NCBI GenBank assembly: GCA_964421785.1
Contig: CAYQZG010000001.1
Coordinates: 73,853-137,852, forward strand
Length of the DNA stretch: 64,000 nt
Direction: 5' to 3'
From: an uncultured Anaerolineales bacterium
Lineage (GTDB): Bacteria > Chloroflexota > Anaerolineae > B4-G1
Below the pieces are notes generated by a model. That model did no database searches and was not told the origin of the DNA. It saw nothing but the letters and a program-made list of their open reading frames with translations. The position numbers and the translations under genes were made by a program. How positions within the stretch are numbered: the stretch's first letter is position 1; each line of letters begins with the position of its first letter. Of this stretch, positions 14,940-25,568 are shown piece by piece.

Positions 14940-16187
14940 ATGGATCTGAATGTTGACTTGGACCGCGATATACCGGTGTTGGACTGGGAACCTTATCTTG
15001 CCTCGCGCACGGAGCGCATGAAGAGCTCTGCTATCCGTGAACTTCTCAAATTGACGCAGAAACCGGATATTATCTCCTTCGCTGGGGGACTGCCTGCTCC
15101 GGATTTCTTTCCTCTTCGTGAAGTTGAGGAGGCTTGTCGGTACATCGTCCAGCAGGATGGTGCAGAGGCCTTGCAGTACAGTGCGACGGAAGGCTATCCT
15201 CCTCTCAAGGAGTATCTATCCAACTCAATGCACAGGTATGGCGTTCCCGCCAAGCGGGACAATGTTCTGCTGACGAATGGATCCCAACAGGCACTGGATT
15301 TGATCGGCAAGATATTCATCGATCCGGGCGATTACGTGCTCACCGGTCGCCCCACGTACTTGGGTGCTATTCAGGCGTGGAATGCGTATCAGGCGCGGTA
15401 CCACACAGTGAGCCTCGATGGAGGTGGCATGATTGTGGATGAGGTTGAGCACGCCTATGAGAAGGCCGTAGCTGATTCTGGAAGACCGCCAAGGTTCATC
15501 TACGTGCTTCCCAATTTCCACAATCCGGCCGGAACGACGCTCTCCCGGGAGCGTCGAGAACAGCTAGCTGAGGTCGCTACGCGACTGTGTCTTCCGGTGG
15601 TCGAGGATGATCCCTATGGTCAGTTGCGATACGAAGGTGAGGACCTCCCTCCTATCTGCACATATATTCCTGAGCGTACGATATACCTAGGAACATTCTC
15701 CAAGACGTTGGCTCCAGGTCTTCGGCTTGGCTGGATCGTCTGTCCGGAAGCGTTGATGAATCGCTTCGTGCAGGCGAAGCAGGGCGCTGATCTGCACACC
15801 GGGACGTTCACCCAGCACGTCGCCAACGACATCTGCCAGCGCGGCTTTCTCAGACAACATGTTAAGAGATTGTGCGGAGTTTACAGAGAACGTCGCGATA
15901 CAATGCTTGATACGATGATTGAGTTCTGGCCCGATACGTGCAGTTGGACGCATCCCGAAGGTGGGCTTTTCCTTTGGGCTCAGGTGCCAGAGAGGATCAA
16001 CACCACGGATTTCCTGAAGCAGGCCTTGGAGGAGAAGGTGGCGTACGTTCCCGGTGTGAACTTCTATCCGAATGAGGATGGCGGATTCCACGCGATGCGG
16101 CTCAACTTCTCTTACTCCTCACCGGAGAACATTGTTGAGGGCATTCACCGGCTGGGGGTGGCGCTGAAGAAGACTCTGGACAACTGA
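14940..16187 (+). CDS. PLP-dependent aminotransferase, class I/II fold (2-aminoadipate/aromatic aminotransferase-like)
   Basis: 415 aa; GGGLPAPDFFP, typical fold-type I layout with SKT lysine region (TFSKTLAPGLRLGW); GGAGG RBS upstream. Confidence 0.8.
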   Translation: MDLNVDLDRDIPVLDWEPYLASRTERMKSSAIRELLKLTQKPDIISFAGGLPAPDFFPLREVEEACRYIVQQDGAEALQYSATEGYPPLKEYLSNSMHRYGVPAKRDNVLLTNGSQQALDLIGKIFIDPGDYVLTGRPTYLGAIQAWNAYQARYHTVSLDGGGMIVDEVEHAYEKAVADSGRPPRFIYVLPNFHNPAGTTLSRERREQLAEVATRLCLPVVEDDPYGQLRYEGEDLPPICTYIPERTIYLGTFSKTLAPGLRLGWIVCPEALMNRFVQAKQGADLHTGTFTQHVANDICQRGFLRQHVKRLCGVYRERRDTMLDTMIEFWPDTCSWTHPEGGLFLWAQVPERINTTDFLKQALEEKVAYVPGVNFYPNEDGGFHAMRLNFSYSSPENIVEGIHRLGVALKKTLDN

Positions 16188-16221
16188 AAGAAGCGAGACG
16201 GTCAAAGGCGATTCTAGAGCA

Positions 16222-19200
16222 TTGAGCGATTTGGGTCCTACTCTCATCCGATCCAAGCTGCAGGTGCCAGTTCCTTCCGGCCTTCTTCACCGGTCGCGGC
16301 TCTGTGATGCCATCGAACAAGGCCTTGAGCGCAAGTTGACGCTTATCTCTGCCCCAGCGGGTTACGGCAAGACGTCCGCCTTAGTTGATTTTGCTTGGCA
16401 CACCTCTGTCCCTGTCTGCTGGTACACGATTGATGAGCGAAATCGAGACCTGATTTCGTTCATCAGATATATCGTCGGTGCCATCCGCGAGCAGTTCCCA
16501 GGGTTTGGTGAACGGGTACATGAGGCCTTGGCCTCTCGAGGCAGCGAGCTCTTCCGTGATCCAACCATCGCCGTCGGCGATTTGGTCAACGAGATACTCG
16601 ATCTGGGTACAGAGTTCGTCTTGGTGCTGGACAACTTCGAGTCAGTGGAGGGAGCCTTTGGCATCCGTGAGTTTGTTCACCGATTGCTCGAAGTTCTTCC
16701 CTCCGCTTGTCACTTGATGATGGGCAGTCGTGTGCTGCCCGATGTGCCGATTACACAGCTTGTCGCCAAGCGTCAGCTTGTTGGTCTCACGGAGCAGGAT
16801 CTACGCTTCAAGCCAGAAGAGGTCGTTGAACTACTTCGAGACTCAAAGATTAGGATCTCCGAGAGACAGGCAGAGGCCGTTGCCAGGAATGCAGAGGGCT
16901 GGATCACCGGCATTCTGCTTATATCAGACTTGCTGCGCGAGGATATGGGAGCCATTATCAGTGACACTCGCAAAGCCACGTCTCAGACGTACAGATATCT
17001 GGCATCAGAAGTACTGAGTCGACAGCCTTGGGATCTCAGGCGCTTCTTGCACGCCTCTTCTATCCTGCGCGAGATGTCGGCACGGCTGTGTCGAGAGGTT
17101 CTTGGTATAGAAGGGGCCCACTTCCTTCTAGCCGAAGTCGAAAGGCGCAATCTCTTTGTGACTCGATTTGGCGATGACCGCAGGGCGGCCTATCGTTACC
17201 ATAATCTCTTCAGAGGTTTTCTGCAGGAACGGATGCGGCAGCGAGAACCGACTCGCTACGCCGAGCTTCATCAGCGGGCAGCTGCCTGGTTCGAACAGGA
17301 ACACCAAGTGGAAGAGGCGGTGCATCATTACCTTGCCGCTGAGGCCTACCCTCAGGCGACAACGCTGATGGAACGAGTGGCGTTGGAGTGGTTCACCCGA
17401 GGACGCGTTGAGACGTTGCTCCGCTGGGCAGAAGCGCTACCGGAGAAGATCAGAAGTCAGGCACCACGGCTCTTTCTCTATCATAGCAAAGTACTTACCG
17501 ATCGTTACGAGCATGAGCCGGCAAAGCAGGCCCTGGCCTACGCTGAGGCCGGCTTTGCTGATGAGGGGCTGTTGGCCTGTCTGGCGAGAGTGCACCTTCA
17601 GCATGCAACGTTGGACTTGTTTGGGGGTCGATACGAGGAGGTCATTGCGGAGGCAGAGAAAGCGCTTGAGATGCTGGGTCAGCAGGAGGTCGCGGAAAGA
17701 GCTCAAGCACAACGGCTGATCGGGAGGGCGCATCTCGGGCGCGGATGCTTCGATGCAGGGATCAGTGAACTGGAGGAAGCCCTCGGATCGTATCGGGAGA
17801 TTGGTGGTCTCTACAACGTGGTCAACTTGCTGCAGGACTTGGCCTTCGCTTTTGCCTCCCAGGGACGCTTTGAGAGGGCAGCCCGGTGCTTGAACGAGGC
17901 CTTGCCGATCGCCCGTCGGCTAGAATCGCCGGCCTTGCTGGCCGGAGTGTTGAATAGCTTGGGTTGGATCGACTATGCCTGCGGAAGGTATCGAGAAGCA
18001 CTTTCTCTGTATGAGGAGGGCCTTGCGGAGGCGCGCCGGGGGGGGGATCTCCGTGGACGGGCCAACATTCTGGACGGAATGGCAAGTATCTATCGAGATG
18101 TCGGCGCCTATCGAAGGGCGGAGTCTCTCTACAGCGCCGCTTGGCGGATCTCGCGTGAAAGCAGGCCCCGCCAAGCTGTTCTGATTCTGGTGGCGCGTGC
18201 CGATATGCATCGCTGGCAGGGACAGCATAGCCGAGCTCTTACCTTGCTGGAGGAGGCTAGGCGATTGGCTGAGGAGAAGGAGCTAGTGGTTGAACGCTGT
18301 GGACCATTGGCTATGGCGGAAGGCATAGCCCTGTCTGAAAGCGGCGAACTCGATGCAGGCCTTCGAAGGCTGTCTGAGGCCGTTAGCTTTCTGGAGCAGC
18401 AGAAAGCGAAGCGCAATCTGGCTCGAGGCTGCTTCTTGCTTGCCAAGGCGCGTCTGATGGCCGAAGAGAAGCGGCAAGCTGTCGCAGAGCTCCGCCGGGC
18501 AGTGGAGCTGGCCAGAGAGATTGGCACGGATCAATTCGCTGTCGTGGAGGCGCAGCATGCGGAGGGCCTGGTCGAGGTGGGCATTAGGGAAGGGGTGGAG
18601 GGCTGTAAGACCATCCTCGATGGCGTGCAGAAACTGGAAGCATTTAGAAAAGAGTTGATGTACGATATCGTGGGGCCGGATCGGGTGTCGGAAAGGCGAC
18701 TCAAGATCTACGCTCTTGGGCAATCTCGCGTCGTGGCTCATGGAGAGCCGATCCCTGATTCCGCCTGGCAGGCAGCGATGGCAAGAGAGCTATTCTTCTA
18801 CATTCTACTGCACGGCCCCGTAGAACGGGATACTGTTGGTCTTGTCTTCTGGCCCGATCTACCATCTGACAAGATGATAAACAACTTCCACAGCACGCTC
18901 TATCGTGCGCGTCATGCTGTTGGGAGTGATGGCATAGTGCTGGAGAATGACAAGTACAGCCTGGGCGTGGACTACTGGTTCGACGTCGAGGCATTCGAAT
19001 CCCTGGTTGAGCGCGCACGTCTCTTGCCGCCTCATGATTGGCAGGTTGAGGATCTGTGGCGGCAAGTGGTAGAGCTGTACCAGGGCGATCTGCTCCCCAA
19101 TGTGGACCGGCCGTGGTGTATATCGAGGCGCGAAGCGTTGCGGGCTGGGTATGTCGAGGCGCTGAGAGAGCTGGGGCGATGTCACGAGAGTCGAGGTGCG

Positions 19201-19425
19201 TTCCAGGGCGCCATTACCTGGTACCGCCAGGCACTGAAGGTGGACGAATTGCGTGAGGATCTCCATCGATCCGTGATGCGCGCGTATGCTCAGATCGGTC
19301 GTCGCTCCGACGCAGTAGCTCACTACCGTCAATGCCAGGAGACCTTGCGTCAAGAGTTGGGCGTCGAACCTTCTTGGGAGACGAGAAACCTATACGAAAA
19401 GCTCAGTGGCGGAGTAGCTGACTGA
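16222..19425 (+). CDS. STAND-type NTPase/TPR transcriptional regulator with C-terminal SARP-like winged-helix + BTAD domain
   Basis: Walker A (SAPAGYGKTS) at N-terminus, long helical/TPR middle, C-terminal OmpR-type wHTH (LKIYALGQSRV...LFFYILLHG...LVFWPD) followed by BTAD-like region (VDYWFDVEAFESLV..., ...GVEPSWETRNLYEKL). Confidence 0.7.
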   Translation: MSDLGPTLIRSKLQVPVPSGLLHRSRLCDAIEQGLERKLTLISAPAGYGKTSALVDFAWHTSVPVCWYTIDERNRDLISFIRYIVGAIREQFPGFGERVHEALASRGSELFRDPTIAVGDLVNEILDLGTEFVLVLDNFESVEGAFGIREFVHRLLEVLPSACHLMMGSRVLPDVPITQLVAKRQLVGLTEQDLRFKPEEVVELLRDSKIRISERQAEAVARNAEGWITGILLISDLLREDMGAIISDTRKATSQTYRYLASEVLSRQPWDLRRFLHASSILREMSARLCREVLGIEGAHFLLAEVERRNLFVTRFGDDRRAAYRYHNLFRGFLQERMRQREPTRYAELHQRAAAWFEQEHQVEEAVHHYLAAEAYPQATTLMERVALEWFTRGRVETLLRWAEALPEKIRSQAPRLFLYHSKVLTDRYEHEPAKQALAYAEAGFADEGLLACLARVHLQHATLDLFGGRYEEVIAEAEKALEMLGQQEVAERAQAQRLIGRAHLGRGCFDAGISELEEALGSYREIGGLYNVVNLLQDLAFAFASQGRFERAARCLNEALPIARRLESPALLAGVLNSLGWIDYACGRYREALSLYEEGLAEARRGGDLRGRANILDGMASIYRDVGAYRRAESLYSAAWRISRESRPRQAVLILVARADMHRWQGQHSRALTLLEEARRLAEEKELVVERCGPLAMAEGIALSESGELDAGLRRLSEAVSFLEQQKAKRNLARGCFLLAKARLMAEEKRQAVAELRRAVELAREIGTDQFAVVEAQHAEGLVEVGIREGVEGCKTILDGVQKLEAFRKELMYDIVGPDRVSERRLKIYALGQSRVVAHGEPIPDSAWQAAMARELFFYILLHGPVERDTVGLVFWPDLPSDKMINNFHSTLYRARHAVGSDGIVLENDKYSLGVDYWFDVEAFESLVERARLLPPHDWQVEDLWRQVVELYQGDLLPNVDRPWCISRREALRAGYVEALRELGRCHESRGAFQGAITWYRQALKVDELREDLHRSVMRAYAQIGRRSDAVAHYRQCQETLRQELGVEPSWETRNLYEKLSGGVAD

Positions 19426-19461
19426 GCCTTTGAGCTGCTCGTTCTCCAATCTCGAAACTCG

Positions 19462-19500
19462 ATAAGAGACTGCCTCCGCGGCAGTCTCTTATTCTTTTTT
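19462..19500 (+). terminator. strong rho-independent terminator after the STAND-SARP regulator gene
   Basis: 13-bp perfect stem ATAAGAGACTGCC/GGCAGTCTCTTAT with 5-nt loop followed by TTCTTTTTT. Confidence 0.7.
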
Positions 19501-19601
19501 GAGCTTCCTCCTGTTGCCACTTCGCTGTTTGTCACCTAGCTTCTCTCCGGAAAGAAGCATCCCACTGACGGATCCTTTCGCCATCTCCTTTATTCAACTC
19601 A

Positions 19602-19642
19602 GTTTCGTTTAGAGGTTTGTTTAGAGGCCTATGCTAGTATTG
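19602..19642 (+). promoter_or_regulatory. candidate activator-dependent promoter: tandem direct repeats GTTTAGAGG (12-nt period) about 7 nt upstream of a TAGTAT -10-like hexamer
   Basis: Repeats at 19607-19615 and 19619-19627; -10-like TAGTAT 19635-19640. Layout resembles SARP box promoters, where the direct repeats replace the -35. Confidence 0.4.
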
Positions 19643-19682
19643 TTGCGTATCCGGAGCAGAACAAGATTAGCGAGAAGGGGGG

Positions 19683-19871
19683 ATGACTATGAGGCAAAGA
19701 ATACTTCAGGTGTTAGCAGGTCTAGCCATGGTATCTGTGCTCTTCCTCGGTCCAGTCGGGCCTGAGCTTGCAGCACGGTCGTTGGGACAAAGGCTCTATG
19801 CAACTGACCCTGCTAGATCAGCTGGCCCGATGTCGCTATGCGGTATCGATGGCGGTGGTAGTGGGGCCTAA
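19683..19871 (+). CDS. small hypothetical protein with N-terminal hydrophobic (signal/TM-like) segment; coding status uncertain
   Basis: 62-aa ORF preceded by strong RBS GAAGGGGGG; hydrophobic N-terminus ILQVLAGLAMVSVLFLG; codon usage (GC3) atypical for this genome. Confidence 0.25.
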   Translation: MTMRQRILQVLAGLAMVSVLFLGPVGPELAARSLGQRLYATDPARSAGPMSLCGIDGGGSGA

Positions 19872-19882
19872 GGGGGAATGAC

Positions 19883-20110
19883 GTGCCACGAAAAGTTGAC
19901 GAACTGATGTGGCGTGCATTGACTGATGCTGCCTTCCGGGAAGGGCTCATGAACGGCCAACGACGGGAATTGGTCGATGCTATGGGGTTGACCGGAGCGG
20001 AGCGAGAGGCAGTGCTGACGGTGGAGGCCGAGTCGCTTGAGGACTTCGCCGGTGCGCTTTGTCAATCCTGTGCCAAGTCATCAATTATACAGGGGGGCAG
20101 TGTCATTTGA
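19883..20110 (+). CDS. small peptide with NHLP/Nif11-type leader-like domain (candidate RiPP-type precursor or small regulatory protein)
   Basis: 75 aa, GTG start 7 nt after AGGGGG RBS; motif ALTDAAFREGLMNGQRRELVDAMGLTGAEREAVL matches the NHLP leader consensus (AWxDxxFKxxLLxNPKxALxxxGVxLPxGVEI) position by position; Cys/Ser-containing C-terminus (CQSCAKSSIIQGGSVI). Confidence 0.4.
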   Translation: MPRKVDELMWRALTDAAFREGLMNGQRRELVDAMGLTGAEREAVLTVEAESLEDFAGALCQSCAKSSIIQGGSVI

Positions 20111-20142
20111 GCGTACATACGGGAAGCACTGTGTCCCATACA

Positions 20143-20382
20143 ATGCTTAGACAACTGGTTGGCCTGGCCTTGGTCGATAGAGCGTTCTGCGACGACTTGA
20201 TGAACGGTAAGCGGCTTGCACTCCTGGCCGAATTCGATCTTACCGACGAGGAACGAGAGATCGTGGCGTCCTTTGAGACGGGGTCGGTGCGGGAGCTTGC
20301 CATAACTGTACACAACTGGCTCAAGAAGCAGGACAGCCCGGCCTCTCCTCACGTAGACTGCAGCACGACTCAAGTTCTGTAG
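20143..20382 (+). CDS. second, paralogous NHLP/Nif11-leader-like small peptide
   Basis: Aligns with upstream peptide (ALVDRAFCDDLMNGKRLALLAEFDLTDEEREIV); alternative starts GTG 20131 / TTG 20059. Distinct C-terminus (HNWLKKQDSPASPHVDCSTTQVL). Confidence 0.4.
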   Translation: MLRQLVGLALVDRAFCDDLMNGKRLALLAEFDLTDEEREIVASFETGSVRELAITVHNWLKKQDSPASPHVDCSTTQVL

Positions 20383-20389
20383 GAATTCT

Positions 20390-20935
20390 GTGTCTGAGTC
20401 ACGTTATCTGTATGAGGGGAACGGACGGGCATATCTTGGCGAGGTGCCCTTATGTTTGGAGGGATTCCTAGTCGAGAGCTTGGCCTATGGCTTGCTGCAG
20501 GTTTTTGGTGTCAAGGGGCCACCTGTGCCTGTGCGAGATATGGTACGGGATCCTCACCCGGTCTTTGAGCGCTTGAGCCTGTTGGAGCTCAATATCGGTC
20601 TGTACGATGCCGTCTATCGATCGTTGGTCAATGGCTCGCGTCTGATCGCGGTCGATCTGGGCCATCCACTCGCCGTTCAGCGCTTTGCAATGGCCAGGGA
20701 GCTTTACGTGGCTTTCTGTTGTTCCCATCGCGCGGTTGAGTTGGATTGGCCTGATCGGGATCACCCACGAATGCACAGTAGTTTCTTCGCTCGTTGTCTG
20801 CTGATGCCAGCAGCGTGGGTGAAACACGTCGGTGCCAGGACTGGCTCTCTGGCAGAGCTGGCTGCTGTTTTCGGCGTTTCAACCAAGATGATGACCCTTA
20901 GGATGCAGGAAACAGACACAGAGCTTACAGCGTAG
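20390..20935 (+). CDS. ImmA/IrrE (DUF955)-like domain protein, apparently lacking the HEXXH catalytic motif
   Basis: C-terminal region SFFARCLLMPAAWV...LAELAAVFGVSTKMMTLRMQE resembles ImmA/IrrE family (ANxFAaeLLMP...fgVS); position of HEXXH occupied by 'AMARELY...CCSH'. Confidence 0.4.
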   Translation: MSESRYLYEGNGRAYLGEVPLCLEGFLVESLAYGLLQVFGVKGPPVPVRDMVRDPHPVFERLSLLELNIGLYDAVYRSLVNGSRLIAVDLGHPLAVQRFAMARELYVAFCCSHRAVELDWPDRDHPRMHSSFFARCLLMPAAWVKHVGARTGSLAELAAVFGVSTKMMTLRMQETDTELTA

Positions 20936-21070
20936 AGTCGATTCTGCCCATCTATCGAAACCATGAAGCGGGCGGCGGCCCCTGGCGGTCTGAGACAGAC
21001 TTAAGGGGAGCTGCGGCTCGCTTCTCTGTCGATAGCTTGAGGCCAAGGGTTTACGGGTCACCAGCGATTC

Positions 21071-21916
21071 GTGACCGATCATACTATGATAGATGGATTG
21101 GGCTTTTCGCGGGTGGGGCATCTAGCACTCGCCGGTGCTCTGATAGCCTGTGTTCTCATTGCGTGTTCCTCTCCCACTGATCCCACTTGGGATCGTGTGC
21201 GGGAGACAAGAACACTCCGCGTGGGCATGGACGCGAGTTTTCCACCCTTTGAGAGCATTGCTGCGGACGGCTCTCTGGTAGGGTTCGACGTGGATCTAGC
21301 CCGAGAGCTAAGTAGGCGTTTGGACGTGGAACCTCGCTTCGTAGCCAATCTGCCCTATGATGGCCTCTACGATGCGCTAACGGCCGGGCGCGTCGATATT
21401 GTGATCTCTGCATTGGTTGTCGATCCGTCCCGCATGGGCGACTACGCGTATTCGAGGATCTACTTCGATGCCGGTCAGGTTCTCGTGTCACGCACTGAAC
21501 AGAGAGCCAGCGACTCTATGGCGGATCTTGGTGGGCATCGTCTGGGTGTCGTTCTTGGGACAGAAGGGGATCGAGAGGGACGGCGGTGGGCACGGCGCTT
21601 GGAAGGCCTAGTTGTCGTGCAGTATCGAACGCCGGCTCGGGCTTTGAGTGCGCTCGAGGAGGGAGAGACAGATGTTGTTTTGGTCGATCACGTCTCAGCG
21701 CTGCAGGCGATGGGTGAGGGAAAGGATCTGGTCATCATTGGAAAGCCGGTGGTTGAGGTCCCCTATGCTTGTGCCATGCGACGCGACAGCGTGCAACTGC
21801 TCCGGGCAGTCAACGAGGCATTGGTGGCTATGGAGGACGATGGTACGATGGACGCGTTGATATCCAAGTGGCTCAGATGGACAGCCGGTACAGCCAATCT
21901 ACGGTTGGGAAGGTAG
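21071..21916 (+). CDS. ABC transporter substrate-binding lipoprotein, family 3 (amino-acid type), orphan (no adjacent permease/ATPase)
   Basis: Lipobox LIACSS; PBPb-like motifs (LRVGMDASFPPFE, GFDVDLARELSRRL, ...DIVISALVV). Confidence 0.7.
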   Translation: MTDHTMIDGLGFSRVGHLALAGALIACVLIACSSPTDPTWDRVRETRTLRVGMDASFPPFESIAADGSLVGFDVDLARELSRRLDVEPRFVANLPYDGLYDALTAGRVDIVISALVVDPSRMGDYAYSRIYFDAGQVLVSRTEQRASDSMADLGGHRLGVVLGTEGDREGRRWARRLEGLVVVQYRTPARALSALEEGETDVVLVDHVSALQAMGEGKDLVIIGKPVVEVPYACAMRRDSVQLLRAVNEALVAMEDDGTMDALISKWLRWTAGTANLRLGR

Positions 21917-21941
21917 GTCGGGACTGGCTCCCGATCCGGCC

Positions 21942-24900
21942 TTAGGGGAGTGTGATGTTGCTCGGCAGGAGCAGGCGATTGTCTGATAGCGGTGCACCCT
22001 CGCTGTCTACGGCTTGGAGTCGCTGCTTTGTGTCGGGATCGTACCAGCCGACGGCGAGGTCGTAGCTCCCGGGCGCCACGTCCTTCGTTGGGAGGTCGAC
22101 TTCGTCTGAGACCACCTCACCCGCGGTCCATTGACCGGTTGGATAGCTGAATCCTCGAGGCATCGTATCCACTTGGGAAGCAGGTTCACCGGTCTCTGGA
22201 TCGGCCAGGTGAACGAAGAACATGTAGTGGCGGTCCGGTGTTTTAAGCGCCTGCCAATAGAGTGTCAGATGGAGGCTCTCCCTACCCTGTGTCAGATCAT
22301 ATCCTGCCAGCTCGATCATATCGCCGAAACGGGCTTCCACGTTTCTGTCCATCTCAGGCAACTTCCAAACGCGCTCTCGTTCTCGGATCCTCACGGAAGC
22401 GGGGTGGGTATAGGAGCCGATTGATGCTCCACCTTTCGGTTCTCTGAGCGTGAGAGAGAGCGTGTAGTCGCCCGGTGGGGACGTTGGAGGGATTGTCAGG
22501 GATGCGCGCCCAGCGACCCAGGCATCGGCTGGCCATTTCTTCGGGGAGGATCCAGGAGCCATTGGTTGTGTGCTGGAGATGCTTCGTTCAGATCCCTCCA
22601 ATTGCCATTCGACCATATAGTCCTGCGAGGGTTTCTTCACGGTCGACCAGTGGGCGGTTGCCTCCAGTTTTTCTCCCTGCCAGACACTTGGTGGTATCTC
22701 GACCCGGTTGAGCACAAGCTCCTCCCCGAACCGAGCCGCAGGGGGCACGTCAGGTCGTCCTGCGGTCCGTGTCAGGCTAATGGGGGTTGCGTACTGCCCG
22801 ATGCTTTCCCAAGTTGCTACGCGGTAAAGGTCGATGGTGAGCGTGTAGGTGTCGCCGGGCGGTACTCCGGGCAGCACGGCCGGGATGTGACGATCCTCGA
22901 TGACGTTATGGAGGGGCCAGAGACTGGTGGGCAGAAAGCCATAACCTGGTTGGGTATCGTAGCCCGGCCGGTCGCCTTGATGCAACCACTCGTTATTTGC
23001 GGCATCGGTCAGGCTCAGGCTGAGGCCGTAGTTGGCGGCGATGGGTTTCACGGCGGACCAGTCGAGTTGGACGTGGAGTCGATCAGGGGCAGGTTGTGTG
23101 GTTTGGACGTCGTGCAAGCGCACGGTGCCATTGGCAAACGTGGCGCGCACAGGCTCTTCTGCGCATGTCCGATCGCGCTTTATCCATATTGGCCGTAAGT
23201 AGACCGGGGACGTGTCGTTGATCTGGAGCAGGTAGATACCCGGTGCTGTTCCCTGCGGAACCGAGAGGGTTATGGTGGTGCTGCCCCTGACGCCAGGGTC
23301 AGACTGCTGCCGATTGAGAGCGATCGGTGCCTCTGCTGTGGCTGGTACCTCGTCTCTTCGTATTGCCGCTGGCGAGAGCAGACGTAACTCTGCAGGAGAT
23401 ATCGCGGAGACGACTGCTGGGTTGTCTTTGTCCCTCCTCCAGTTGAGAGTCACTGCGAAGTCTTTCCCCGGGGTGATTCCTTCGTCAGGGGGAGATTCAA
23501 GGCTTCCGTAGCTGTAGCCGGTCAGTCGCCACCCTTCGAAGGGCACACCGTCTGGATTGTGATGGAGATATGGCTTCTCCTCAAAATCCATTGTCAGATC
23601 GTGGCTAGAGGTGGAGGTAACGCGAGGGTGAAAAGCCGTCACCAGTGACAAGATCACGACGAAGGGCAGATAAGGAGCTGTAGCGTGTCGATTACAGGTT
23701 GCCAATCCCGATATTTCACGTCCATTCTGTCTTCTTTTTCCCTCTTCTTCTTGGTTCCATGGCTCAACACAGAGGACAAGGATCATCAGCATGGCGATAA
23801 GGGATGCGATTTCGGCTCCGAGGCGTAGCGGTGTGCGGCCTAAGCGAATCTTGACTATGTGTGATCCTGGAGGAATGTACAGACTGAGGTAACCTGAGCC
23901 AATGGCCGGCTCTACCTCCATGCGCTTTCCATCCACGACGGCTTGCCAGCCGGGCCAGTAGTAGAGGGGGAAAGCGACCTTCGAGCCCTCGCTTCCTGTC
24001 TCCACGTGCCAGATCCGGCGTGTTGGTTTGCGATCGAGCCTCTTTGCACCGAGGAGCGTTCCATTGATGGGCATGGCACGGGGCCGGGCATCGGGCGAGA
24101 CTTGCTCTGGTCCGATGTAGGGGCGAGGTTTTACCCACTTGGGCAGATACTCATGCCGGATGGTTGAGCCGATATTGCCGGTGAAAAGCTCATACAAATG
24201 CAGTCGCTCAGGGTTTACGTCGTCGGCGCTGATGGGCAGGTAGTCAGGCTGGAGGCCGACCAGCACTGCTGTCGTCAGCAGGATCCCCAACGCAAGAGCG
24301 CAAGCCCAGGCAAGATAGCGGTGTTGGAATCTGATATGGGAGACGGCAGCGCCGGTCAGCAGCGCGGTGAAGAGGGCTTGAATGGAGAGGAAACGCCACG
24401 GGAATTGGGCCATTGACAGCAGGGGAAGGTGGTCCCAAACCGACTGCGAAAGAGGCGTAATCAACCAGGTGCTGAGAAGGAGGCCCAGAAGACTGAAGCC
24501 CAGCTTCATTATGTCCGGATGGTGTGCCTGGAGCTGAGAGTCGAGCTCTTTGGGCTTACCGTGCCGGGTGACGAGTTGTGAGCTAATCCCTCTGAACGAT
24601 ACAATGAGGGCGCCAGCCACTGCCAGTATGGCCTGCAGCAATCCCATTGCGAAGGGGGAAGTGGCACTTTGTCCTGTGGCGTAATCGAACAGGACCTTCC
24701 ACTGCACGAGATCAGTTCCCCGGAAGTGATTGCCATAGAAGAAGTAACCGGTGGTTTGAGCACTGAGTTGGACGTACTTGGTCTCCGCCAGGGCCGGCAG
24801 CCAGAACCAGGCTGAGAGCAGCAGGGCTAGCAACAAGGGGGATGTGAGGAGTGAGCAACGGGCGATGGCCCTCCCGAACGGGTAATCTGGCCCTGAGCTC

Positions 24901-25568
24901 GTCGTACGCGTGATGTGAAGCGTCACATAAAGGAGGATGAAGGGCGAAAAGATGAGGGCGGAGACGTTGTGGGTGACGATGAGGCCAGCGTAAGCCAGGG
25001 CTGGGAATAGGGCCCTCCGTGCAGATGGCTGCAAAGCGAGCCGATCGAATCCCCAGAGGATGAGGGGATAGAAGGCGAAAGCCGCGAATTCAGAGAGGGA
25101 GTCTCCGCGTACGTAGATGTTGATGAGGTGGAACGGGGCTGATATGTAGGCCACAGCGGCAAGCCAGGCTCCAGGACGGCTGCGGAGGACCTTTTTGGTC
25201 CAGTGGTACATCGCTAGGGCCGATACTGCCAGGAAGAGGGTCTGCGTCAGTTTGATTGCCGTGAGGATATCCAGGCCGAGGACCGCAAAGCCTGCAGCGA
25301 GGTAGTATGGCAGGGCTGCGTAATAGCTGAAGAAGGGGTAGCCAAACCCATAGGCTGCATCGGGCATCCATCGAACCGGAAATACACCGGCGCGCAGATT
25401 GGCTGCAAGCTGATGCGTGCGAAGCAACAGGAAAGGGCTATCACCGCCTCCGCGCGTGTTCAGCAGGCCAGCGCCCCATACTGGACCTGCCGCAAGCAGT
25501 GACAAAAGCAGGAGCGTCGCCGGGGGAATGATCCGTTCCCAGGCGACGCTCCGTGAAGCGGTCTTCAT
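21942..25568 (-). CDS. large (1208 aa) polytopic membrane protein with big extracytoplasmic C-terminal domain; putative GT-C-type glycosyltransferase/YfhO-like
   Basis: About 14 predicted TM helices in N-terminal 600 aa by hydrophobicity, then long soluble region; family assignment tentative. Confidence 0.45.
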   Translation of the reverse strand: MKTASRSVAWERIIPPATLLLLSLLAAGPVWGAGLLNTRGGGDSPFLLLRTHQLAANLRAGVFPVRWMPDAAYGFGYPFFSYYAALPYYLAAGFAVLGLDILTAIKLTQTLFLAVSALAMYHWTKKVLRSRPGAWLAAVAYISAPFHLINIYVRGDSLSEFAAFAFYPLILWGFDRLALQPSARRALFPALAYAGLIVTHNVSALIFSPFILLYVTLHITRTTSSGPDYPFGRAIARCSLLTSPLLLALLLSAWFWLPALAETKYVQLSAQTTGYFFYGNHFRGTDLVQWKVLFDYATGQSATSPFAMGLLQAILAVAGALIVSFRGISSQLVTRHGKPKELDSQLQAHHPDIMKLGFSLLGLLLSTWLITPLSQSVWDHLPLLSMAQFPWRFLSIQALFTALLTGAAVSHIRFQHRYLAWACALALGILLTTAVLVGLQPDYLPISADDVNPERLHLYELFTGNIGSTIRHEYLPKWVKPRPYIGPEQVSPDARPRAMPINGTLLGAKRLDRKPTRRIWHVETGSEGSKVAFPLYYWPGWQAVVDGKRMEVEPAIGSGYLSLYIPPGSHIVKIRLGRTPLRLGAEIASLIAMLMILVLCVEPWNQEEEGKRRQNGREISGLATCNRHATAPYLPFVVILSLVTAFHPRVTSTSSHDLTMDFEEKPYLHHNPDGVPFEGWRLTGYSYGSLESPPDEGITPGKDFAVTLNWRRDKDNPAVVSAISPAELRLLSPAAIRRDEVPATAEAPIALNRQQSDPGVRGSTTITLSVPQGTAPGIYLLQINDTSPVYLRPIWIKRDRTCAEEPVRATFANGTVRLHDVQTTQPAPDRLHVQLDWSAVKPIAANYGLSLSLTDAANNEWLHQGDRPGYDTQPGYGFLPTSLWPLHNVIEDRHIPAVLPGVPPGDTYTLTIDLYRVATWESIGQYATPISLTRTAGRPDVPPAARFGEELVLNRVEIPPSVWQGEKLEATAHWSTVKKPSQDYMVEWQLEGSERSISSTQPMAPGSSPKKWPADAWVAGRASLTIPPTSPPGDYTLSLTLREPKGGASIGSYTHPASVRIRERERVWKLPEMDRNVEARFGDMIELAGYDLTQGRESLHLTLYWQALKTPDRHYMFFVHLADPETGEPASQVDTMPRGFSYPTGQWTAGEVVSDEVDLPTKDVAPGSYDLAVGWYDPDTKQRLQAVDSEGAPLSDNRLLLPSNITLP

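Follow-up and report, generated by a model that had tools for sequence, protein, structure and literature searches.

A candidate SARP-type operator of tandem direct repeats upstream of a small-peptide operon in an uncultured bacterium of the Chloroflexota

The targets of SARP regulators carry direct repeats which overlap the −35 region of the promoter, lie 11 or 22 bp apart, equal to one or two helical turns, and end with a 3′ repeat placed 8 bp from the −10 element (PMC10936776; PMC11301090). The afs box, the target of AfsR, spans positions −40 to −19, and within each 11-bp repeat it is the first 8 bp that the protein contacts (PMC10936776; PMC11301090), the last 3 bp of each repeat being uncontacted by AfsR (PMC10936776). 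All described SARPs, small and large, have the SARP module at the N-terminus (PMC10936776). In the large SARPs of the AfsR type this module is followed by a NOD/NB-ARC ATPase and by TPRs. Another type of large regulator, MalT/LAL, combines a Walker-A STAND ATPase at the N-terminus with a winged-helix domain and TPR/sensor domains of MalT type, and ends with a LuxR-type helix-turn-helix. To our knowledge, MalT boxes are not phased tandem repeats located 8 bp from the −10 element. A third arrangement is that of the PhoB/OmpR-type proteins, the winged helices of which are placed head-to-tail on direct repeats (the pho boxes) replacing the −35 element. As far as we know, the way SARPs activate transcription has been elucidated in actinomycetes only, and always for regulators whose SARP module is N-terminal.

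Here we describe a locus found in 64 kb of DNA from an uncultured bacterium of the Anaerolineae-type Chloroflexota; this whole stretch is referred to as the window, and all features are on its forward strand unless otherwise stated. The gene of a 1067-aa regulator (16222–19425) is followed by two tandem repeats and by a putative operon of small proteins. The initial annotation interpreted the repeats as a SARP box, and the way it described them agrees with the sequence: two exact copies of the 9-mer GTTTAGAGG are found at 19607–19615 and 19619–19627, with a start-to-start distance of 12 nt and the spacer TTT (19616–19618) between them. Counting also bears out that the repeats end 7 nt (CCTATGC) before the −10-like hexamer TAGTAT at 19635–19640. 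In addition, TG at 19632–19633 makes TGC-TAGTAT (19632–19640) an extended −10 element which fits TGnTAnnnT. If the gap is measured from the 8-mer that is conserved in orthologs instead of the 9-mer, it is 8 bp. With the hexamer set as −12 to −7, the upstream 8-mer (19607–19614) is predicted to occupy −40 to −33 and the downstream one (19619–19626) −28 to −21, and the predicted span of −40 to −21 overlaps the −35 position. The lack of a −35 hexamer, claimed earlier, stands as well, because hexamers 16–18 nt from the −10 element agree with TTGACA in 1/6 positions at best and a σ70 scan gave no promoter at the site. The transcription start is predicted at 19646–19648 solely from where the −10 hexamer lies. 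The ribosome-binding site AAGGGGGG (19675–19682) starts 47–48 nt after the repeats, close to the approximately 45 nt given before, and AAGGAGG-type sites are equally placed in the orthologs. Another TAnnnT hexamer, TATGCT (19630–19635), lies 5 nt before TAGTAT and overlaps the region; the position conserved in the orthologs is a different one, and orthology favours TAGTAT as the −10 element.

Two details of the initial annotation had to be given up. The sequence AGTTTC, taken for a partial third copy of the repeat, matches the T-rich spacer only: one unit upstream of the site the position weight matrix (PWM) scores 0.6 bits compared to 36.4 bits for the site itself, and the position is not conserved. 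Also, the terminator of the regulator gene, placed 40 nt upstream of the repeats, is considerably further away. A strong intrinsic terminator is found by terminator scan and RNA folding at 19461–19500, with a 14-bp stem (19461–19493) and a T-run, approximately 106 nt upstream of the first repeat, and an equivalent hairpin with a T-run is present in the orthologs. A weak 6-bp hairpin at 19539–19558, approximately 48 nt upstream of the repeats, has no T-run.

Within the window the repeat by itself is weak evidence, since exact 9-mers repeated at a period of 9–15 nt occur six times, where 1.7 are expected. Near-tandem exact 9-mers are thus not rare, which is what might be said for a duplication that arose by chance or slippage and has no function, or for an RNA element in a read-through transcript; we consider such an origin extremely improbable. 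The repeats are situated downstream of the strong terminator, and an Rfam search of 19400–19900 gave only sub-threshold chance matches, on the terminator hairpin, both of which speak against an RNA element. The exact 9-mer was not found elsewhere in the 64 kb, and copies with one mismatch are at chance level (12 matches including the two exact ones, that is 10 others, compared to 8.5 expected). With the PWM a single strong site was detected in the 64 kb, the one at 36.4 bits, the next best match having 7.2 bits, and one strong site fits a locus-specific regulator. The 7.2-bit match is at 16162–16181 on the minus strand, inside the conserved 3′ coding end of an aminotransferase gene. It faces away from the regulator, and a weak match is seen at the same place in four orthologous loci (L034, L162, L167 and L168); most likely it reflects conservation of coding sequence and is not a binding site. 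At the sequence level, the significance of the repeat comes only from conservation across genomes.

Conservation in orthologous loci had been named beforehand as the test that could refute the SARP-box interpretation, and the repeats turned out to be kept in 18/18 of them. The orthologous set comprises 17–18 loci with regulators 52–66% identical and includes loci from eight exact-protein look-ups; a metagenome scan contributed two orthologs among the matches listed. Repeats of the form GTTyAGAG, in two or three copies on the same strand, are located between the terminator of the regulator gene and an RBS with a small hydrophobic ORF. The unit can be written as GTT[T/C/A]AGAG(G); it is TGTAAGAG in L002 and L167, and a third copy is present in L001 and L003. 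The distance from the last 8-mer to the TAnnnT hexamer (GATAAT in L005) is exactly 8 bp in the window and in all 18 orthologs, so that the SARP-like spacing put forward by the initial annotation holds in the form published for SARP targets (PMC10936776; PMC11301090). Of 18 promoter copies, about 16 have TG at −3/−2 relative to the hexamer. As to the period, the window and 16 orthologs out of 18 have 12 bp, and L002 and L167 have 11 bp. In an alignment of the loci on the hexamer, information is found only at −29 to −9 (both repeats and TTT), at TG and at T, A and T of the hexamer, and is approximately 0 bits elsewhere; both the upstream repeat and the spacer have 1.2–1.9 bits per position. Such position-specific conservation in 18 orthologs with unconserved flanks is not expected of a chance duplication or an RNA element.

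The site of 20 nt (21 nt in L082) is 100% identical to that of the window in L001, L034, L082 and L168. The regulator of L082 is only approximately 52% identical to that of the window, and yet the identical site is found there in two copies. In this locus (contig Ga0180436_10005570, L082:4780–4960) the promoter module occurs twice, 103 nt apart, before the small ORF; each copy consists of GTTTAGAGGTTTGTTTAGAGG, 7 nt and TAAGAT, and a similar A-rich stretch precedes both. Elsewhere in the orthologous set, paired changes are seen in the two repeats, C/C in L003, L005 and L163 and TGTAAGAG twice in L002 and L167. The two repeats thus tend to change together, as would be expected if identical protomers read both.

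The site resembles the Streptomyces SARP boxes, namely the afs box of AfsR at afsS and the targets of ActII-ORF4 and DnrI, in many ways. In all of them tandem same-strand repeats lie over the −35 position of a promoter without a good −35 element, 8 bp separate the 3′ repeat from the −10 element, about 8 bp are conserved per repeat, the footprint, here a predicted one, covers roughly −40 to −20, and the cognate regulator has a winged helix with a BTAD, i.e., a SARP module. As read from the sequence, the span of −40 to −21 together with the 8-bp gap is the published SARP footprint and rule. There are differences, too. Here and in most loci of the family the repeats have a period of 12 bp, whereas in Streptomyces it is 11 or 22 bp. 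The TTT spacer is strongly conserved, in contrast to the last 3 bp of the AfsR repeats, which are not contacted. The −10 element is TG-extended, the sequence of the box is unrelated, and the host is not an actinomycete but belongs to the Anaerolineae-type Chloroflexota.

The regulator encoded immediately upstream begins with a MalT-like STAND ATPase, continues with a TPR region of MalT type and ends with a SARP module. Its Walker A motif is SAPAGYGKTS (aa 43–52), in which GYGKT is invariant, and the NCBIfam MalT model matches aa 8–519 (model positions 2–516, E = 7e-75, which is below the equivalog cut-off). Pfam detects TPR_MalT and, at the far C-terminus, BTAD (E = 3e-25), and the NCBIfam AfsR model matches aa 824–1060. 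A Foldseek search with the AF2 model of all 1067 aa gave MalT (8bob_C) as the best match; the matches to this whole model were MalT and generic TPR proteins with no SARP structures among them, because the TPR part dominates. A profile of the last 240 aa, built from 44 family members and compared with the PDB, aligns in one stretch to AfsR (28–263, E = 3e-29) and to EmbR (16–254, E = 1e-17), and the C-terminus is thereby identified as a complete SARP module. This module (approximately aa 826–1067 of 1067; 18697–19422) has a winged helix with the recognition helix DKMINNFHSTLYRARHAV, followed directly by BTAD. Trans_reg_C, the OmpR-type Pfam family, was not detected, with no match to the DNA-binding fragment even at E ≤ 10. 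The AF2 model has helices at 846–864, 869–876 and 882–900 and a β-hairpin at 905–914, at a moderate pLDDT of approximately 57–71.

The protein on record for the regulator gene, P0001, has 1029 aa, and the ORF from the TTG codon at 16222 gives 1067 aa, the additional part being 16222–16335. The longer start is probably right, since orthologs align from residues 1–7 of the longer form. More than 120 orthologs of the regulator, with 55–66% identity, are found in MAGs of Anaerolineae, Anaerolineales and Thermoflexia.

Similarly to the large SARPs of the AfsR type, the regulator is assembled from a STAND-type ATPase, a TPR sensor and a SARP output block, and a single dedicated promoter appears to drive a small ORF, as AfsR does with afsS. 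Unlike in those proteins, the order is inverted, with the ATPase first, then the TPRs and the SARP module at the C-terminus and not at the N-terminus, and the ATPase and TPR parts are of MalT type instead of NB-ARC type. With the MalT/LAL regulators it shares the N-terminal Walker-A STAND ATPase, the winged-helix domain and the MalT-type TPR/sensor domains, whereas in the place of their C-terminal LuxR-type helix-turn-helix, for which no LuxR/GerE match was obtained, it has the SARP module.

Hundreds of MalT-type STAND–TPR regulators with a C-terminal SARP module were found, and many of them have a private tandem operator with a period of 12 bp (or 11 bp). The 400 nt after the regulator genes were searched with a detector that accepts a period of 11–12, at least 8/9 matches and TAnnnT within 10 nt. 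Of 66 family loci, 34 are positive directly behind the regulator gene. Inside the gene the same detector gives 1/66 and 0/66, further downstream 0/57 and 1/49, on the reverse complement 2/66, and in shuffled sequences 0.6 on average. About half of the family loci thus have no repeat under this strict detector. In a larger set 56/113 loci have an exact repeat run of 8 nt or more, with a period of 12 in 42 and 11 in 14 of them, and the gap to the first TAnnnT has its modal value at 8 (27/46 family loci). The enrichment is orientation-specific, as seen from the reverse-complement control. Together with the conservation in orthologs, the enrichment in the family effectively refutes chance duplication and the RNA element.

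While the geometry is shared, each paralogous clade has its own repeat unit, among them TTTGGTGAGTG, TTTTGAAGCCTG, TTTTGCAGCCTG, TGGTAAGAG, CCGGCGAGAG, TTGTGAGTG and CGTAAGCAC. The unit goes with the recognition helix: [NS]NFHS is paired with GTTTAGAG (with the exception of L082), D[SN]FH with GTTCAGAG (with a partial exception in L004) and NRFH with TGTAAGAG; in addition, LKLRFKN is paired with GAAGCC and LKARFKN with GCAGCC. The comparison of three loci is instructive in this respect. L002 has TGTAAGAG twice with a period of 11 and the helix NRFH, and L003, its closest relative in the N-terminal 826 aa (79% identity), has GTTCAGAG twice with a period of 12 and the helix DSFH. Between these two proteins the winged helix is the least conserved part (70%, compared to 79% and 83% for the others). 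L167 agrees with L002 in box, period and helix, yet over the N-terminal part it is only 64% identical to L002 or L003. The box therefore follows the helix and not the rest of the protein. The code from helix to base is not one-to-one, since L082 combines the helix RDTFHS with GTTTAGAG, and L004, with the helix DSFH, has GTTTAGAG as the downstream repeat. The covariation of helix and box is also partly confounded by shared ancestry.

These data bear on the question whether the repeats could be the target of a transcription factor encoded elsewhere, e.g., a response regulator of the OmpR/PhoB type, the neighbouring SARP gene being incidental. Regulators of the OmpR/PhoB family also bind tandem direct repeats overlapping the −35 position, and the likeness extends to winged helices placed head-to-tail in the −35 region. 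Nevertheless, we consider such a factor very unlikely. The box adjoins the regulator gene in 18/18 orthologs and in dozens of paralogous loci, and each clade has its own box, which varies along with the recognition helix of the protein encoded beside it. One MAG (JASFWK01) contains both an ortholog (L007, the contig of which ends before the box position) and a paralog (L009), and the paralog has a box of its own, CTGTGTATA. The PhoB/OmpR proteins themselves differ from the regulator described here: as response regulators driven by phosphorylation they have a receiver domain, and their boxes have a period of 11 bp. The regulator of this locus has no receiver domain and is not matched by Trans_reg_C. 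Taken as a whole, the SARP-box interpretation of the initial annotation is favoured by the SARP module encoded next door, the conserved repeats, the matching geometry and the private boxes of the paralogs.

The genes behind the promoter are small. ORF1 (19683–19871) encodes a peptide of 62 aa (60 aa from the ATG at 19689) with basic N-terminal residues, one hydrophobic stretch and the tail ...CGIDGGGSGA, which is predicted from these features to be exported; no family of Pfam or NCBIfam matched it. ORF2 (19883–20110, 75 aa) and ORF3 (20143–20382, 79 aa) encode small proteins resembling the Os1348/NHLP clan, and both are conserved in the orthologs. ORF2 matches NCBIfam NF038399 with E = 2.6e-6 and 27.4 bits, below the cut-off of 40, and Pfam Frankia_peptide with E = 0.008, and ORF3 matches NF038399 with E = 1.6e-5, also below the cut-off. 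In Pseudomonas, Os1348 itself is an antibiotic-related small protein (PMC7726476). The putative operon ends with a gene (20390–20935) for an M78/IrrE-like protein of 181 aa (Pfam Peptidase_M78, E = 8e-8), which is conserved in most orthologs. At the position expected for HExxH, MARELYVAF (RELYV) is read by eye in the window and in all orthologs, and judging from this the protein may have a catalytically inactive peptidase fold. In some orthologs a conserved domain 'LTEALFSLKEPWRGRFLDLVA…' is fused to the M78-like protein or follows it directly.

The order of genes at 14940–25568 of the window, i.e., aminotransferase, regulator, peptide operon and SBP_bac_3 solute-binding protein, is shared with L161, L162 and L168, and in that order the SBP_bac_3 gene is followed, on the opposite strand, by the gene of a 1208-aa PTPS_related membrane protein. 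In some orthologs a gene resembling nucleoside 2-deoxyribosyltransferase is inserted upstream of the regulator gene.

Similar peptides are encoded behind the box throughout the family, often together with Os1348/NHLP-like small proteins and either a DUF5317 or an M78-like protein. Of 48 first ORFs in family loci, 47 do not exceed 100 aa and 39 have one hydrophobic stretch, usually followed by a tail of the type GAP…GGG. Almost all of these peptides are 35–65 aa long; their N-terminus has basic residues, and after the hydrophobic stretch comes a short tail rich in Gly (…GAPxDGGG…, …DGGGSGA). Some of the tails are tandemly repeated, LLANPPVGGGSSAT three times in L005 and PVDGTGGGRRT three times in L070. 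In seven paralogous operons (L011, L024, L025, L027, L040, L044 and L055) a DUF5317 membrane protein of approximately 190 aa is encoded about 300–1300 nt after the regulator gene (E = 6e-32 and 1e-35 in the two that were tested), and a Frankia_peptide/Os1348-like ORF together with DUF5317 is found there in place of the M78-like gene. Literature searches for SARP or BTAD in Chloroflexi or Anaerolineae found no paper, and those on DUF5317 or Frankia_peptide gave the Os1348 paper (PMC7726476) as the one relevant result.

In our opinion it is quite probable, judging from the features described above, that a pair of SARP modules, supplied by the adjacent regulator, occupies the repeats head-to-tail, replaces the −35 element and activates the extended −10 promoter of the peptide operon. 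The two GTTTAGAG(G) repeats would then be the dedicated operator of the protein encoded immediately upstream (16222–19425). Binding would be gated by the MalT-like ATPase/TPR part in its active state, and two C-terminal SARP modules would be placed head-to-tail, one on each 8-bp repeat (approximately −40 to −33 and −28 to −21). There they would stand in for the absent −35 element, and RNA polymerase would be recruited to TGC-TAGTAT or positioned on it. Transcription would start near 19647 and cover the four-gene operon, with the Gly-tailed peptide, the two Os1348/NHLP-like proteins and the M78-like protein. We infer physical binding, the transcription start, activation rather than repression, and a signal sensed by the regulator. 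With a period of 12 bp the two protomers would be shifted in phase by about 50° if neither the DNA nor the dimer interface were different.

The direction of control deserves separate consideration, as the same site could also serve as a repression operator. In that case the promoter would be constitutive owing to its TG-extended −10 element, and a protein bound at −40 to −21, either some state of the adjacent regulator or a further factor that binds in tandem, would block RNA polymerase. Extended −10 promoters can work without a −35 element; the one found here (TGnTAnnnT) is conserved in the orthologs and could do so without an activator, and the site overlaps a region which polymerase must contact. 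We nevertheless regard repression as improbable. The adjacent protein has a BTAD, the 'bacterial transcriptional activator domain', and the phasing of 8 bp is fixed across clades with unrelated boxes, which is expected of polymerase contact and not of simple occlusion. In addition, the structurally characterised SARP complexes at this position are all activating (PMC10936776; PMC11301090). Activation by the adjacent regulator is thus the interpretation we prefer.

If this is so, the SARP mechanism would reach an uncultured lineage of Chloroflexota, with an inverted order of domains in the regulator and mostly a 12-bp period in the operator. The dozens of helix–box pairs are a natural dataset for studying how SARP winged helices read DNA. 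A promoter of 34 bp together with one regulator may offer a switch for an uncharacterised peptide operon of organisms that cannot be grown. The steady coupling of regulator and peptide suggests, as a matter of speculation, an undescribed module that is possibly autoinducing. The most far-reaching interpretation, which may be entertained although it is rather unlikely to hold in full, is that the locus belongs to a large undescribed signalling system of the Anaerolineae-type Chloroflexota, in which the peptide is exported, perhaps processed, and sensed directly or indirectly by the TPR/ATPase part of the regulator, resulting in autoinduction, while paralogs are insulated from each other by co-evolving pairs of helix and box. 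If true, the logic of autoinduction would be like that of the RRNPP systems of Firmicutes, by analogy, and built from unrelated parts. The coupling of these regulators to tiny Gly-tailed peptides hints at an undescribed system of peptide signalling or production.
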